A stretch of 12,555 bases of DNA from positions 1 to 12,555 of the IMG/VR virus record IMGVR_UViG_2606217107_000010; one strand, given 5' to 3'. The notes beneath the pieces are model-generated. The model was not told the DNA's origin. It saw only the letters and a program-made list of their open reading frames with translations, and searched no databases. Below, in pieces: positions 7,220 through 12,532 of this stretch. Position 1 is the first letter of the stretch; every line of letters starts with the position of its first letter. This DNA comes from a virus (taxonomy: Duplodnaviria > Heunggongvirae > Uroviricota > Caudoviricetes). The position numbers and the translations under genes are program-made.

Positions 7220-7555
7220 ATGAAGTGGATTGTGATTGATACAGTTATCCAGCCATCATGCGGAATATCTTTTTCAGTCATATGGAGTAAAATAAAATTA
7301 ATAATCTGGTATCAATCGGATGCTTTCTTACCTCCTGAAAGTATATTTACACTGACTCACACAGGCATCATGCTCAATAACAAAGTGCTACCTGTAACCA
7401 TTTACAACGTAGTACCATTCAATAAAACATTCTGGAATTTAATCAAAAACAGCCAGGAATGCCCTACAAATACAGATAACGTATTGAATGAATGCTTTAA
7501 TAACCGTTGCACTCTGCAAATATGTCCTTATGGGCTAAAACAACAAAGTCCATAA
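7220..7555 (+). CDS. hypothetical Cys-containing protein (111 aa) in an AT-rich slot, antisense to the late operon
   Basis: ATG at 7220 with SD GGAA 5 nt upstream; low-GC codon usage; five Cys residues; no family recognised. Could be a spurious ORF in AT-rich non-coding DNA. Confidence 0.25.
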
Positions 7556-7575: not shown

Positions 7576-7610
7576 AAAATCAATATAAACAGCCCCTCCG
7601 GAGAGGGGCT
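7576..7610 (-). terminator. intrinsic terminator-like hairpin downstream of the tRNA cluster
   Basis: Stem AGCCCCTC (7591..7598) pairs with GAGGGGCT (7603..7610), loop CGGA; on the minus strand it is followed by a T-rich run (complement of 7576..7590). Confidence 0.45.
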
Positions 7611-7846
7611 GGAGAGTGGCGCTATGTGCCATTGCATGGTGCCGGGTGCCTCCCGGTGAATTCAGTACCAGCACCTGAATCCGCGATTATCCCATATACC
7701 TACTCGCTGATTGCCCCTCCGCACAGGGGGATTCACCATGCCAGTTTCTTTTAACAAACTCCCCGCAAACCAGACAACAGTCAACCGCCTGAATTGTGAG
7801 ACATTTAAAAAAAAGGCCCACAAAAGCGAGCCAGGGAAAATAAGTG

Positions 7847-7923
7847 TGGCGCGTTGTACTGGATTCGAACCAGTGACCGATTGCTTAGAAGGCAATTGCT
7901 CTGTCCGGCTGAGCTAACAACGC
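7847..7923 (-). tRNA. tRNA-Arg (anticodon UCU)
   Basis: Manual fold of the minus strand: GCGTTGT-TA-GCTC-AGCCGGAC-AGAGC-A-ATTGC-CTTCTAA-GCAAT-CGGTC-ACTGG-TTCGAAT-CCAGT-ACAACGC-G-CCA. Cloverleaf with T-loop GGTTCGAATCC, anticodon loop CU-UCU-AA, and encoded CCA. Confidence 0.85.
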
Positions 7924-7936
7924 ATGATGCAGATAA

Positions 7937-8013
7937 TGGACCGCCATCGGGGACTTGAACCCCGCGCAACCAGCTTCGAAGGCTGGCGCTCTTTCCTGAT
8001 GAGCTAATGGCGG
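7937..8013 (-). tRNA. tRNA-Arg (anticodon read as UCG)
   Basis: Minus strand CCGCCAT-TA-GCTC-ATCAGGAAA-GAGC-G-CCAGC-CTTCGAA-GCTGG-TTGCG-CGGGG-TTCAAGT-CCCCG-ATGGCGG-T-CCA. Canonical stems; anticodon assigned by manual folding only. Confidence 0.75.
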
Positions 8014-8020
8014 TATGTGA

Positions 8021-8096
8021 TGGTGGCCCTTGCTGGATTTGAACCAGCGACCTGGCGATTATGAGTCGCTCGCTCTCACCACTGAGCTAAAGGGCC
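8021..8096 (-). tRNA. tRNA-Ile2 / Met-like (anticodon CAU, ileX/ileZ-type)
   Basis: Minus strand GGCCCTTTAGCTCAGTGGTGAGAGCGAGCGACTCATAATCGCCAGGTCGCTGGTTCAAATCCAGCAAGGGCCACCA; nearly collinear with my recollection of E. coli ileX (lysidine-modified CAU reading AUA). Confidence 0.85.
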
Positions 8097-8145: not shown

Positions 8146-9195
8146 TCAAACGATTAAATCCTGAACTTCCCTGACTGTCTGCTCAAAACGTCCGGTCTCC
8201 AGTTCAACGCCAATCGCACGACGCCCGAGCGCCAGTGCAGCTTTTACCGTTGAACCTGAGCCCATAAAAAAATCTGCAACCAGGTCTCCCGGACGACTGC
8301 TTGCGCTGATTATCTGCTGCAGCATTTCTGCCGGTTTTTCGCACGGATGTTTCCCGGGATAGAACTGCACCGGTTTATGTGTCCACACATCCGTGTACGG
8401 CACCTGCGCCGTCACACCAAAATACCGCCGCAGATGCTTATATTCACTCTGCAGCTCCACATACTGCCGGTTCAGTGACGTATACGTATCCACCAGCTGG
8501 TGGTGGGGCTTTTCCAGTTCACCGCGCTGATGTTTCTCTTCTGCCACCCGGGCAAACAGCGACTGTAATTTCAGATAATCGCTTTCGTTCGGTAGCTGCC
8601 ACTGACTGGCACTGAACCAGTGCGGCACCATGTTTTTCTTTCCTGTGGCATCTGCAATCTGTTTTGCCGTTATCCCCAGGGCAGCGCGCGCATCACGAAA
8701 GTAAGCAATCAGCGGGGCCATCACATGCTGTTTCAGTGCCCTGCCCTTCGCCTCATACCCGGCATCTTTCGGACGATACGGCCCCTGATAATGTTCCGCG
8801 AACAGAATGCGCTCTGTGGCGGGGAAATACGCCCGCAGGCTTTCCTTGTTGCATCCGTTCCAGCGTCCGGACGGCTTCGCCCAGATAATATGGTTCAGCA
8901 CACTGAAGCGTTCACGCATCATGATTTCGATATCAGATGCCAGGCGATGACCACAGAACAGGTAAAGACTTCCGGCAGGTTTCAGCACCCGCCAGAACTG
9001 CGCCAGACACTGGTCCAGCCACTTCAGGTAATCATCGTCGCCCTTCCACTGGTTATCCCAGCCCTCGGGCTTCACTTTAAAGTACGGCGGGTCCGTGACT
9101 ATCAGGTCAACAGAATTTTCGGGTAACGACCGGATAAATTCCAGGCAGTCGGCGTTGATTAACTCACAACTGGATATTTTTACAGTATTAAGCAT
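8146..9195 (-). CDS. DNA methyltransferase (beta-class N6-adenine/N4-cytosine MTase, DPPY motif), apparently orphan
   Basis: 349-aa ORF with motif IV DLIVTDPPYF near the N-terminus and motif I FFMGSGST near the C-terminus (beta-class order). No adjacent restriction endonuclease ORF. Confidence 0.9.
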   Translation of the reverse strand: MLNTVKISSCELINADCLEFIRSLPENSVDLIVTDPPYFKVKPEGWDNQWKGDDDYLKWLDQCLAQFWRVLKPAGSLYLFCGHRLASDIEIMMRERFSVLNHIIWAKPSGRWNGCNKESLRAYFPATERILFAEHYQGPYRPKDAGYEAKGRALKQHVMAPLIAYFRDARAALGITAKQIADATGKKNMVPHWFSASQWQLPNESDYLKLQSLFARVAEEKHQRGELEKPHHQLVDTYTSLNRQYVELQSEYKHLRRYFGVTAQVPYTDVWTHKPVQFYPGKHPCEKPAEMLQQIISASSRPGDLVADFFMGSGSTVKAALALGRRAIGVELETGRFEQTVREVQDLIV

Positions 9196-9333: not shown

Positions 9334-9359
9334 ATAAAAAAGCCTTCAGGGCTGAAGGC
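9334..9359 (-). terminator. intrinsic terminator overlapping the stop codon of the small upstream ORF
   Basis: Stem GCCTTCA (9342..9348) pairs with TGAAGGC (9353..9359), 4-nt loop; A-run at 9334..9341 on the plus strand gives a U-run after the hairpin on the minus strand. Confidence 0.5.
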
Positions 9360-9543
9360 GTCTGTAACAACCGAACTGATAATCTGCCAGACCCGCCATA
9401 ACAAGCTGAGTCAGTATTAACTGGCAGCGTTCACGTGAAAGGTAAGTATTCTGCGCAATTTCCCCGACAGTCGCCGGTTCGGTGACGCTCAATTCATTAA
9501 ACACCACTCTGGCGGTTTCGGTCATATCTTGCTGTTTTAGCAT
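9346..9543 (-). CDS. small hypothetical protein, possible winged-helix DNA-binding fold (65 aa)
   Basis: MLKQQDMTETARVVFNELSVTEPATVGEIAQNTYLSRERCQLILTQLVMAGL...; start chosen at the ATG at 9543 with SD AAGGGAAA (six-frame ORF begins at 9567). Helix-turn-helix-like segment TVGEIAQNTYLSRERCQLIL. Fold assignment is speculative. Confidence 0.45.
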   Translation of the reverse strand: MLKQQDMTETARVVFNELSVTEPATVGEIAQNTYLSRERCQLILTQLVMAGLADYQFGCYRRLQP

Positions 9544-9664
9544 GTCTTTTTCCCTTCTGGTTAACATGACATACCAATAACTCTTGTCTAAAAAGCCAGC
9601 AAGATAAAAAGTCAGTATTCACGACCACCAGCGTGTTTACTGTACTGCACCAAGTTTACAGGTA

Positions 9665-9688
9665 CAAAAAACCCGCTCAGTGGCGGGG
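9665..9688 (-). terminator. intrinsic terminator-like hairpin, candidate tR' of the late operon
   Basis: Stem CCCGC (9672..9676) pairs with GCGGG (9683..9687), loop TCAGTG; the A7 run at 9665..9671 gives U7 immediately after the hairpin on the minus strand. Confidence 0.45.
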
Positions 9689-9822
9689 TTAAGTTGTGTG
9701 GCGAAGTAACCACTCTTAACAGATTAAGATAAAATTTGCGGACCGCGGTAATTTTTTTTGCTAAATTAAAGCCATATAAAAAATAAGATCCATAAGAAAT
9801 TATTAGTATACTAAGGTTTAAC

Positions 9823-10764
9823 ATGGCTACTATTGCGCAATCAAAGAAACAAAAAAAACTTAAAATTGGTTTTTACACCAGCAGTTCTGGGACTATCCGC
9901 AGCCATTCAGTTGCTAAGCAAGCAATTGAAAATCTGTATAATACTTGCGTAACCGTTACGAATAATCATTTTGATACCATCTATAGAAATAAAAAGTTAA
10001 AAATAGCTTTTATAAATAAAGATACAAAAGCTAAATATTTCTTCGGCTACATGTCATGCTCACGAGAAGAGTATCTCCTTCCTTATATTGGTGATGAACA
10101 CTGGAATGAGCACAACATACCACTAGATGATAAAAAATACATAGTCGAAAGAACCTATTTTTTATATTATTACGATAGTGATATTTTAATATTAACTCAA
10201 AATCATCTTGGGCCGAAAGAATCGGATTTAGCTTATCTGCTTTACAGCCAGAGTGGTAATCCTGGAAATAACTTTTCATTCCAAGCCATCTGGAAAAAAG
10301 AGAGCGTCAAAGAGCTACTTGAAACAGGAAGTACTTTGAGAAGTTGTGATATTGTCCTGGCTGCTCCCAGGAACTTTGATGCAACAAATTACCAGCTAAA
10401 TAGTTCATTTTCTAAGGAACTGGTAAATATGATGGTAGGGCTGGGTGGAACACGTCTCAAGTTAAATCTAAGGGGACGTGCATCAGGGAGAGTAAAAGTC
10501 AAAGGTTATTTATCAGATCTCGTTAAGGATGGTATTAAAGAACTCCTTGAAAAAATGCCGGGAATTGTAAAAAAAGCGGCAGTAACACAGCCCAAAAATA
10601 CCGTTGAACAAAGTCTTCTTGATCAGGTACTCATTTCAGAAAAAAACATATATACCGTTAATGGTTATGGCACTGATAGTGATGTTCTGCAAGCCATGAT
10701 TTCTGCTAAAATTGATAACAATGAATACCTTAAGCAATACGATATCAGCAAAAAGAAGGTATAG
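9823..10764 (+). CDS. hypothetical soluble protein (313 aa), first gene of a low-GC two-gene insert; possible RexA-like sensor
   Basis: ATG at 9823 with SD AAGG 6 nt upstream; strongly AT-rich codon usage, unlike the flanking phage genes; opposite strand to the late operon. By-eye motif resemblance to my recollection of lambda RexA (GFY near the N-terminus; LDD...GPxxSDLxxxL block). Unverified. Confidence 0.8.
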   Translation: MATIAQSKKQKKLKIGFYTSSSGTIRSHSVAKQAIENLYNTCVTVTNNHFDTIYRNKKLKIAFINKDTKAKYFFGYMSCSREEYLLPYIGDEHWNEHNIPLDDKKYIVERTYFLYYYDSDILILTQNHLGPKESDLAYLLYSQSGNPGNNFSFQAIWKKESVKELLETGSTLRSCDIVLAAPRNFDATNYQLNSSFSKELVNMMVGLGGTRLKLNLRGRASGRVKVKGYLSDLVKDGIKELLEKMPGIVKKAAVTQPKNTVEQSLLDQVLISEKNIYTVNGYGTDSDVLQAMISAKIDNNEYLKQYDISKKKV

Positions 10765-10767
10765 GAT

Positions 10768-11211
10768 ATGTTATTGAAATACTTAAGAAACCTGATTGTA
10801 AGTGTTTTTTGCACCTTGTTCCTACTGAGGTATATCCCTCAGATGGGGCATGCTGACATACTTACAGCCTCCGGGGTTATTTCAACTGTATCCGGTATTT
10901 TATTTGGTTTTATTTTAGCCACAATATCAATTTTTAGTGCTGCTAGCGAAAACTCAAATGGAATAATAAAAGCATTAAAAAACAACAACATACTTCAAGT
11001 TATTATTGTAAATCTATTAACCGCAGGTGCATCTTTAATTACGGCATGCGTTATTGCTTTGATAGCAATGTTTGCCAATGAAAAGACATTGTTACATGGA
11101 GAAAAAATAGAATTTATTTTAATTATCGAATCTTTATCTCTTCTTATCATTTCAGTAATAACTTTTGCCTTTACATGGAGAAAAGTAAACTGGATACTCC
11201 CCCACATTTAA
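10768..11211 (+). CDS. hypothetical four-TM membrane protein (147 aa), second gene of the insert; possible RexB-like effector
   Basis: ATG at 10768, 3 nt after the stop of the upstream gene, with SD GAAGG. Four hydrophobic segments (about residues 8-22, 33-58, 74-101, 113-136). A LRYIPQ motif before TM2 recalls FRHYIPG in my recollection of lambda RexB. Confidence 0.8.
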   Translation: MLLKYLRNLIVSVFCTLFLLRYIPQMGHADILTASGVISTVSGILFGFILATISIFSAASENSNGIIKALKNNNILQVIIVNLLTAGASLITACVIALIAMFANEKTLLHGEKIEFILIIESLSLLIISVITFAFTWRKVNWILPHI

Positions 11212-11234
11212 AAAGGGCAGAAATGCCCTTTTTT
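11211..11234. terminator. bidirectional intrinsic terminator between the convergent insert operon and gene Q
   Basis: AAAAGGGCA-GAAA-TGCCCTTTTTT: stem 11215..11219 pairs with 11224..11228, GAAA loop, with an A-run before and a T-run after. Serves both the plus and minus strands. Confidence 0.65.
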
Positions 11235-11597
11235 CTACTCCATTTCAAGTTTAACATCCAGCATTGAAAGGCATCCATCAATAAACCCTTCAGCCATCTG
11301 TATCTCTATACGTATCAATTTCTCATCTTTTTTGCGAGCTCTTGCAAGCTTTCTTTTCGAGATGCCATACAGGTAATGGGCCACAATCAAAGAATGCTCG
11401 TACGGTTTTCGCTTTTTAAGAAGAGCAAGACAACCTTCAATAATTAATGCATCACTATCTGAACAAGCCTGACGTGTTTTGCTTGTATAGGGAAGAAGCC
11501 CTTTAAACCCAGCAGCTATAGGAGAATAGTCTACTCCTGAACTATCACTCGCCGCCCATGCTCCCCAACGATCCAGAACCATTTGAATATCACGCAT
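11235..11597 (-). CDS. Q: late-gene antiterminator Q (phage 21 / Stx-phage Q family)
   Basis: MRDIQMVLDRWGAWAASDSSGVDYSPIAAGFKGLLPYTSKTRQACSDSDALIIEGCLALLKK...; N-terminus matches my recollection of Q proteins of Stx/21-like phages. Start at the ATG at 11597 with SD GGAG; the six-frame ORF has a TTG at 11612. Confidence 0.85.
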   Translation of the reverse strand: MRDIQMVLDRWGAWAASDSSGVDYSPIAAGFKGLLPYTSKTRQACSDSDALIIEGCLALLKKRKPYEHSLIVAHYLYGISKRKLARARKKDEKLIRIEIQMAEGFIDGCLSMLDVKLEME

Positions 11598-11614
11598 CAA
11601 CTTTCTCCACAAAA

Positions 11615-12532
11615 TCAGGCCAGCACGCCAATTGCCAGCGCACGATCGATAAAACGAAATATCAGCTCCAGTTGGGAACCATACTTCTCTTCAAATGCCA
11701 CGGTATCCGCATGCAGTTCGTCATGGTGTTTTCTGCACAAAGGCAACACAAAAAGGTCATGCGCTTTTGTACCCATTCCACCCTGACCATGACCAATCAG
11801 GTGATGAGGATCGTCGGCTGGCTTACCACAACATGCACACGGCTGCGTCTTAACCCAGCGCGTGTACTTTTCATTAACCCAGCGACGACGTTTTGGGCGT
11901 AACATAAAAGACTCCGGCGACTCCGGATCCACTTTCAGCGCCAGCACCTTTTTCGCCTTATCCTGGATGATGCTGGTGGCAGTAACCGAAGGCACAAGGT
12001 CACTTTCCCGGGTGACAGACGGCACAACAGGCTTCGGTAATCTCAGGGCCTTACGGGCTGCACTTTCCGGTAAGGCATCCGCCAGATCATTACGAATCAG
12101 CCACCAGCACAGTTCCGGCATTGTCACAACGTGACTGTCATCAAAACCGAGATCCCGACGCACAACAGACAACACCCAGCGGGCACAGTTATCCGTTGCC
12201 ATTGATTCCAGCCGTTCCGTGAACTGATCGCGCAGCTGATTATCGCAGTGCCAGCACAGACGGATTGCACCCGGAGCGTGTCGCATTGTGGTCATGTTCT
12301 CGCTGTGCCAGTCGGAATGAGGCCACTGGCAGCCTTTTTCACGAAGTAACCAGCTTTCAAGACATTCCACGCCACCAGCACGACGGATCACTGCCTCATT
12401 GCGGAACACGGCCCGAACGGCAGGATCATCCGCCAGCGGTTGTGATGCCGCCGGAACGGCACCACTGGCGAAAGATGAATAACGCTCCGGCTCAGGCTCC
12501 AGCAGGACACGCCCCTGCATAAACAGGGGCAT
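11615..12532 (-). CDS. DUF968-domain phage protein (YdfU-like), upstream of Q
   Basis: C-terminal region RWVKTQPCACCGKPADDPHHLIGHGQGGMGTKAHDLFVLPLCRKHHDELH with Cys/His clusters typical of DUF968. The reading frame stays open upstream of the ATG at 12532 to the window edge, so the true start may lie beyond 12555. Confidence 0.75.
   Translation of the reverse strand: MPLFMQGRVLLEPEPERYSSFASGAVPAASQPLADDPAVRAVFRNEAVIRRAGGVECLESWLLREKGCQWPHSDWHSENMTTMRHAPGAIRLCWHCDNQLRDQFTERLESMATDNCARWVLSVVRRDLGFDDSHVVTMPELCWWLIRNDLADALPESAARKALRLPKPVVPSVTRESDLVPSVTATSIIQDKAKKVLALKVDPESPESFMLRPKRRRWVNEKYTRWVKTQPCACCGKPADDPHHLIGHGQGGMGTKAHDLFVLPLCRKHHDELHADTVAFEEKYGSQLELIFRFIDRALAIGVLA

Follow-up and report, generated by a model that had tools for sequence, protein, structure and literature searches.

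The late antiterminator gene Q and its late promoter pR' lie 1.5 kilobases (kb) apart in the phage DNA analysed here, a stretch of 12,555 nucleotides (nt) from IMG/VR record IMGVR_UViG_2606217107_000010, hereafter called the window. A two-gene cassette read in the opposite direction occupies the space between the Q stop codon and pR', and what comparison identifies as the complete late promoter, with its leader terminator (tR'), is found on the far side. With a probability of about 80%, we read this locus as an ordinary Q-dependent late switch of the Q21 family whose two halves are split by a cargo cassette. The layout is itself an ordinary, known arrangement with a precedent in E. coli K-12, of which the window is a further member, and the succession of Q, insert and pR' is both frequent and old.

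A scan for consensus promoters returned nothing above threshold in 9690-9822 on either strand, so the late promoter was located by comparison instead. When the region 9600-9830 was compared by BLAST with phage genomes, two kinds of match were obtained, one covering the whole region (phage cdtI, 97% identity) and the other restricted to 9759-9615. The restricted matches came from several Shiga toxin 2a (Stx2a) phages and from phage 1720a-02, where the segment directly follows a Q of the same type; in LC616079, for example, the match begins at 13438, after the end of Q at 13417. Likewise, where relatives have no insert and a Q of the same type (74-78% identity), the homologous segment starts about 20 nt past the Q stop. 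Alignment of the relatives gives one order of elements, namely an A-rich tract, a short palindrome, a -10 element of the form TAnnnT, a 19-mer (GTTAAGAGTGGTTACTTCG) and, some 12 nt beyond it, a GC-rich hairpin followed by a run of T's. The A-rich tract is found at the position of the window's A8 in all large clusters of Q, and TAnnnT is retained at -10 while its inner bases vary freely. The 19-mer is exact in prophage DLP12 and in all relatives found by BLAST except two, which differ by one base; it has one copy in the window, with none expected by chance even when up to three mismatches are allowed. From the end of Q to this block we counted 59-60 nt in the insert-less relatives of the same Q type, 54-76 nt in relatives of the adjacent type and 1517 nt in the window. 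Judged by these comparisons, the full module of promoter, block and terminator is intact to the left of the insert, at 9759-9666. An earlier note on this DNA had proposed that the plus-strand insert parts Q from its late promoter and tR', and that pR'/qut lies in the AT-rich gap at 9690-9822; the comparative evidence, together with the homology described next, agrees with both proposals.

The predicted start, an A at 9714, is placed by homology to the mapped PR' promoters of the Sakai prophages Sp15 (VT1-Sakai) and Sp5. The VT1-Sakai record annotates the homologous stretch with a putative late promoter (TTTACG-16-TATCAT), a Q-utilisation site and two pR' terminators. In Sp15 and Sp5, the PR' start determined by differential RNA sequencing (dRNA-seq) and the 3' end determined by Term-seq lie 258 nt apart (Sy et al. 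2020, PMC7547250). In each of them, counting back exactly 258 nt from the final T of the second terminator leads to the A that stands seven nt after TATCAT, and it is this A that aligns with window position 9714. Sp15 and Sp5 share with the window a homologous Q (46-48% identity), the promoter architecture, the early transcribed block (GATAAGAGTGGTTAC) and the first hairpin. They differ in that Q adjoins the promoter and overlaps its -35, in their palindrome (ACGATCGT), and in a 258-nt leader (the small RNA StxS) with a second terminator ahead of the toxin genes.

Related loci were collected from IMG/VR by exact search for the 15-mers GTTAAGAGTGGTTAC and GATAAGAGTGGTTAC (L016-L255); counts are among the matches listed and include the redundancy of the database. 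With Q required upstream on the same strand, a locus was called Q-adjacent when the gap was below 100 nt and insert-bearing when the insert was at least 300 nt long. On these definitions 95 of the 181 loci bear an insert and 86 of 181 are Q-adjacent, so that adjacency of Q and pR' does not define this subfamily. In the first collection, the 87 insert-bearing loci fall into 26 architectures, and in 78 of them all of the cargo lies opposite to late transcription. For annotation, this means that pR' and tR' should not be assumed to lie next to Q, since in about half of the sampled relatives they are 0.6-3 kb away behind accessory genes. The module of A-tract, Q-specific palindrome, TAnnnT, GTTAAGAGTGGTTAC and hairpin lets the late promoter be found by sequence, including in toxin-converting phages, whose toxin expression it drives.

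The Q of the window matches PF06530 over model positions 1-118 of 118 (E 5.2e-52, Pfam), a family named as the Q21 family in PMC9388147. It also has a PHROG match to 'anti-termination protein Q-like' and a weak match (E 0.002) to the structures of phage 21 Q (6jnx, 6p18). Phage 82 was considered as the source of the closest Q and dropped, PF06530 being the Q21 family. Among known systems, DLP12 of E. coli K-12 (MG1655) resembles the window in having quuD, an oppositely oriented nmpC, the identical 19-mer, a TAnnnT -10, the hairpin with its T-run and the essD/lysis genes. The lc porin gene of PA-2 stands in the same layout as DLP12 quuD-nmpC-essD. As in this type of locus, the cargo of the window is read from the opposite strand, and past it promoter and terminator are intact. 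DLP12 differs in its Q (49% identity), its own palindrome (ACGTACGT), its better -35 (TTTACG-16-TATGCT) and its cargo, the porin pseudogene nmpC, interrupted by IS5 in K-12, in place of a RexA-like pair. Phage cdtI (AB285204/NC_009514; orf52, the Q gene, to orf55) has a Q that is 99-100% identical and the same two reverse genes (orf54, orf53), and its promoter region matches 9600-9830 at 97% identity. It differs in passing from the methylase directly to the lysis genes, with no tRNAs or nanS-p, and in a 1-nt deletion in the hairpin; its record annotates no promoter or terminator.

The features of the window are collected in Table 1. The gene order is the usual lambdoid one, nearly all on the minus strand, interrupted by two open reading frames (ORFs) on the plus strand.

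Table 1. Features around Q, the insert and pR', in window positions; signed offsets are relative to the predicted late start (nt, nucleotides; aa, amino acids)
Feature	Position	Strand	Remarks
Gene for DUF968 protein	11615-12532	-	ORF and Pfam
Late antiterminator gene Q, Q21 family (PF06530)	11235-11612	-	Longest ORF 125 aa, ATG 11597, stop TAG 11237-11235
Two-way hairpin, AAAAAGGGCA-gaaa-TGCCCTTTTT	11210-11233	both	Between the cassette stop (11209-11211) and the Q stop
Insert (two-gene cassette)	~9760-11234	+	~1.5 kb, between the Q stop and the late promoter
Second cassette gene, candidate RexB-like partner	10768-11211	+	147 aa, four hydrophobic segments; phrog_8552, function unknown
First cassette gene, DUF6731, lambda RexA-like fold	9823-10764	+	313 aa; Pfam DUF and fold match
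Left end of insert, putative cassette promoter and 5' untranslated region	9760-9822	+	Sequence common to loci with the same cassette
A8 tract, possible UP-like element	9759-9752	-	-45 to -38
Palindrome GCGGTCCGC, candidate Q-binding element	9746-9738	-	-32 to -24; single copy in the window
-10 hexamer TAATCT	9726-9721	-	-12 to -7; aligns with the annotated TATCAT of VT1-Sakai
Invariant block GTTAAGAGTGGTTACTTCG	9720-9702	-	-6 to +13; includes the predicted start A 9714
Leader terminator (first tR'), CCCGC-cactga-GCGGG then T6	9687-9666	-	Hairpin 9687-9672 (+28 to +43), T-run 9671-9666, ends +49; scan and folding
Gene for 73-aa protein, first gene past the leader	9346-9567	-	phrog_331, weak helix-turn-helix signal; hypothetical in all relatives' annotation
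Second terminator-like hairpin, GCCTTCAG-ccct-GAAGGC and T-run	9359-9336	-	Hairpin 9359-9342; overlaps the end of the 73-aa gene; scan
DNA methylase gene	8146-9195	-	
Three tRNA genes	7847-8096	-	
nanS-p-type esterase gene	5103-6974	-	
Phage 21-type holin gene	4737-5030	-	

Q proteins of this kind are diffusible and bind DNA. In the switch as we picture it, Q would come from early rightward transcription, here on the minus strand, and, being diffusible, would find its own promoter beyond the cassette through the A-tract, the palindrome GCGGTCCGC, the -10 TAATCT and the start at 9714. RNA polymerase leaving 9714 would then pause at or before 9702, within the invariant early block. Without Q it would stop at the hairpin and T6 (9687-9666), giving an RNA of about 49 nt, or at the next terminator past the 73-aa gene; with Q it would pass these sites and transcribe the methylase, tRNA, nanS-p and lysis genes. 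The cassette would be read the opposite way from a promoter of its own within 9760-9822 and would end at the two-way hairpin beside Q.

The upstream region of the promoter was read separately for each Q cluster, after clustering the Q proteins at 80% identity (181 loci, 18 clusters). The palindrome GCGGTCCGC occurs in the window's cluster and in a sister cluster at 62-69% identity, GCGTACGC in three clusters at 50-58% identity, ACGTACGT, ACGATCGT or ACAATCGT in the cluster of DLP12 and Stx phages, and TTCGTTACGAA, TGTTATAACA, TGTCATGACA and TGGAATTCCA in smaller clusters. At least eight versions are thus found at the same position, and the version tracks the Q cluster irrespective of the insert. 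In the window's cluster the element is present at all 36 of 36 loci, the 11-mer CGCGGTCCGCA being exact in 28 and differing by one base in 8. It is kept there whether the gap is 59-60 nt or 862-2276 nt, over at least eight insert sizes. Conservation at the palindrome positions is 90% or more in the 16 unique upstream sequences of the cluster, in contrast to the variable spacer and inner -10 bases. The late module downstream is swapped just past the hairpin, and the palindrome is not tied to it. These observations make the palindrome at -32 to -24 a candidate Q-binding or specificity element. The promoters of Stx phages also carry an allele-specific palindrome (ACGATCGT). The Q cassette of phage 21 (6jnx, 6p18) likewise has a Q of Pfam family PF06530, and its logic, with a binding element between -35 and -10, a sigma-dependent pause and then a terminator, is the one predicted for the window; apart from the weak sequence similarity, it differs in its Q-binding element, a direct repeat of two TGAGCA copies at about -24 to -10.

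The leader hairpin and T-run recur in 103 of 149 unique related downstream sequences, with the last T at +47 to +50 or +57 to +61; the rest of the 149 are mostly chance 15-mer matches in unrelated DNA. The stem variants are compensatory (CCCGC/GCGGG, CCGCC/GGCGG, CCTCGC/GCGGGG and CCCAC/GTGGG). Over the whole window, the terminator scan found 20 candidates against 12.8 +/- 3.2 expected, a mild enrichment, and the hairpin at 9359-9336 is a possible second tR'. The earlier note had placed the next minus-strand terminator-like hairpin about 1.5 kb from Q, which holds for its position, and had given it a U7 tail, which is in fact a run of six T's. Genomes of E. coli share Q, insert and promoter as a unit and diverge just past the hairpin, at 9668, 9661, 9617 or 9511. 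Conversely, in phages with another Q (Stx2c phages, mEp460 and Ayreon) 100% identity starts exactly at the first base of the hairpin, 9687, and the leader terminator therefore marks the point where recombination joins the module of Q and promoter to the late module. Rfam has no family on the leader, its matches in the window being the tRNAs and STnc100 only. A further conserved hairpin in the 5' leader (GTGG...CCAC, +2 to +17) was considered and set aside, as it is not retained in other variants. At least 15 DLP12-like loci have GAGCTGG in place of GAGCGGG in the leader hairpin, which breaks one stem pair, so that the terminator may be weakened in those strains.

The insert has a GC content of 0.34, compared to 0.48 for the whole window, and the gap at 9690-9822 has 29%. 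On its right, the Q stop is followed by AAAAAAGGGCA; on its left, homology to the insert-less relatives resumes at about 9759 (...GCAAAAAAAATTACCGCGG). The junction falls within the 3' end of Q (11235-11260), which ends ...LEME-stop in the window and ...LEMDDWLLKK-stop in insert-less relatives (L004, L050), where this longer end lies within CTAAAAAAGTAAAAAATGATTAG and is followed by the palindrome. The comparison of the junctions thus places the cassette between two A-runs and shows that it has replaced about six last codons of Q, the TAG stop being supplied by the insert junction; phage cdtI has the same short C-terminus. Both junctions are located at runs of A6-A8. At the right end, the earlier note had Q abutting a bidirectional terminator, and the hairpin at 11210-11233 indeed folds on both strands (plus strand -13.4 kcal/mol, minus strand -13.0), its stem being followed by T-rich sequence in either direction. 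It is not present in insert-less relatives, and a relative with an NYN insert has 12 nt between the two stops, leaving no room for it; the hairpin therefore belongs to the cassette. The same note's picture of terminators on both flanks holds for this right side. The left one points away from the insert and is part of the leader of the late operon. A plus-strand 'terminator' at 9736 was rejected, since it shows no fold (-4.5 kcal/mol, z 0.3) and corresponds to the promoter palindrome and A-tract read on the opposite strand. Only 109 nt separate the cassette ATG (9823) from the predicted late start, so the cassette promoter would stand back-to-back with the A-tract of pR'; the best candidate for its -10, TAAGAT at 9784-9789, is weak. 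That the cassette and pR' share a divergent control region is plausible.

Several points weigh against a Q-dependent switch of the kind proposed. The start, the pause and the response to Q are predicted for the window by homology. The promoter scan misses the site because no good -35 hexamer stands at 16-18 nt from the -10, TTACCG being found at 19 nt. Two candidates for the pause occur in the block, AAGAGT at -3 to +3 and TACTTC at +7 to +12 (TACATT or TACTTT in relatives); neither is decisive, and TACTTC does not end in the T that is usual there. For L016-L255, the 15-mer is invariant because these loci were collected by exact 15-mer search. The palindrome is unlike the direct repeat of phage 21, the only solved Q-binding element in the family, and that it goes with the Q allele may be due in part to physical linkage. 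The published Sakai coordinates are offset from NC_002695.2 by 135 and 142 nt (the record versions differ), which makes the 258-nt match a consistency check rather than a base-for-base one. Finally, the Sakai lysogen transcript runs past the equivalent first hairpin (+27 to +49) and ends at +258 (PMC7547250), so the hairpin at 9687-9672 may be leaky.

The 1.5 kb between Q and the promoter, the two-way hairpin right after Q, the empty promoter scan at 9690-9822 and the removal of about six C-terminal codons from Q could be taken to mean that the insertion has orphaned Q, and that late transcription starts elsewhere (for example downstream of the methyltransferase) or that the prophage is defective in late expression. 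We consider this highly improbable. The promoter, block and terminator module is intact and in single copy, and the one occurrence of the conserved block in the window speaks against a start elsewhere, the other option of the earlier note; the remaining promoter-like matches in the window are no more than chance would give (13 found, 16.3 expected). An insert is present at this site in 95 of the 181 relatives listed. Moreover, a review-level statement reports the DLP12 lysis operon to be under the control of the Q-type antiterminator of the prophage, which would act across nmpC, and the paper on phage cdtI, which has the same insert and an identical Q down to the short C-terminus, calls the phage inducible in its title. 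The same frequency of inserts and the same precedents, with the diffusible nature of Q, tell against the suggestion that the insert interferes with late activation, and we found no evidence in the sequences compared that it does so. Another view is that the cassette and the late operon are co-regulated through the 109-nt divergent region that they share, or that antisense early transcription shuts the cassette off on induction. The closeness of the cassette ATG to the late start, with a cassette promoter that must abut the A-tract, would suit this, and so would the 78 of 87 inserts of the first collection that face against late and early transcription, as selection for antisense silencing or for independence of Q would produce. 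However, unrelated cassettes with different upstream regions occupy the site, with no common cassette operator visible, and the two-way hairpin would stop unmodified polymerase leaving Q; we hold such coupling to be unlikely. More speculatively, terminator-resistant early transcription coming from Q after induction would run antisense through the cassette, and this could explain why the cargo almost always faces backwards.

Other doubts concern single elements of the module. The palindrome at 9746-9738 might not bind Q at all, and might reflect linkage only, serve another factor or form part of the -35 region. It overlaps the -35 position, the Q-binding element of phage 21 at about -24 to -10 is a direct repeat with no palindrome, and in insert-less genomes the palindrome is only about 30 nt from Q, so that linkage is expected. 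Yet it stays matched to the Q cluster over at least eight insert sizes while flanking promoter bases vary, it is independent of the late module that is swapped just past the hairpin, and its position is taken by at least eight different palindromes, depending on the Q cluster; the doubt keeps some weight, and we lean towards a role in Q recognition. The leader hairpin at 9687-9672 might similarly be merely a weak attenuator, the real block to late transcription standing further downstream at 9359-9336, past the 73-aa gene. Its stem has only five GC pairs, a second terminator-like site is available at 9359-9342, and lysogen RNA of Sp15 and Sp5 passes the equivalent hairpin to end at +258. RNA-seq and Term-seq libraries usually fail to retain RNAs as short as about 49 nt, so that inactivity of the hairpin does not follow from the Sakai data, and in most relatives hairpin and T-run are kept at a fixed distance with compensatory changes; a purely attenuating role seems to us the less probable of the two. 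In the eLife 3'-end tables for K-12, no transcript end is listed at 5772xx near the pR' of DLP12.

The cassette appears to encode an exclusion system. Its first protein, DUF6731, has a two-domain fold like that of lambda RexA, and the next structural matches are CHL4, RdgC and IML3, which the paper on the RexA structure reports as structural relatives of RexA. It has 45 homologue clusters only, mostly from Enterobacterales with some from Vibrio, and a PHROG match of unknown function; we found no literature on DUF6731 and no PADLOC match. The second protein has hydrophobic segments at residues 1-20, 31-61, 74-109 and 112-137 (Kyte-Doolittle window) and no match in Pfam or PADLOC. RexB is a 16 kDa protein with a predicted four-helix membrane topology, according to the same RexA paper. 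The gene order is that of lambda RexA/RexB, with the four-segment protein encoded after the RexA-like one. Searches of Pfam, PADLOC and PHROGs and a profile search of PDB sequences connected neither protein to RexA or RexB, and the cassette differs from rexAB in lying between Q and pR', not next to cI, and presumably in not being expressed from pRM. A profile of DUF6731 showed no relation to KwaB, PDC-M53A or two other cassette proteins. On fold and layout only, we read the cassette as a Rex-like exclusion module, and most likely it is an exclusion or defence module expressed by the prophage. The RexA-like assignment is a first functional lead for DUF6731.

Other relatives carry different cassettes at the same site. 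These include a complete Kiwa system (KwaA E 2e-83, KwaB E 2e-150), PDC-M53A with a membrane partner, a KAP-type NTPase (PDC-S20), an HNH protein (PDC-M68A), PDC-S42, an ATPase and cytosine methylase pair, an NYN-domain protein and the nmpC/lc porin; example loci are L027 4848-6256, L131 260-1285, L118 2241-3569, L065 1424-2167 and L037 7327-10158. Defence candidates among these cassettes support a defence role for the location, and prophage-borne defence genes seem to be plentiful at the Q-pR' site. In several of the cassettes, a soluble protein of about 300 aa is followed by a multi-pass membrane protein, as in the window. A limited search of the literature found no explicit description of a hotspot between Q and pR', which is not proof of absence. 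Taken further, and quite tentatively, the Q-pR' junction of the Q21 branch that comprises DLP12, Stx-phage and cdtI-type Q could be a dedicated hotspot at which lambdoid phages exchange counter-oriented defence cassettes (more than 25 kinds, including Kiwa and several PADLOC candidates), DUF6731 and its four-segment partner an unrecognised, sequence-divergent Rex-like abortive-infection system, and the allele-specific palindrome (-32 to -24) a Q-binding element of a new, dimer type. If so, the palindrome would set the specificity between Q and pR', including in phages that drive Shiga-toxin expression.

Elsewhere in the window and its relatives, the following was observed. The DUF968 (YdfU) gene upstream of Q is labelled 'antitermination protein Q' in some phage records (L006 114-1103, L010 1-616), which looks like an annotation error. 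A full-length Rfam match to the small RNA STnc100 (132 bits against a gathering score of 47) lies at 7581-7770 on the minus strand, just downstream of the tRNA trio. Between STnc100 and the nanS-p gene, another plus-strand ORF of 111 aa (7220-7555; phrog_4407, function unknown) sits in a low-GC stretch at about 6900-7500 (32-34% GC) and looks like another counter-oriented cargo insert.

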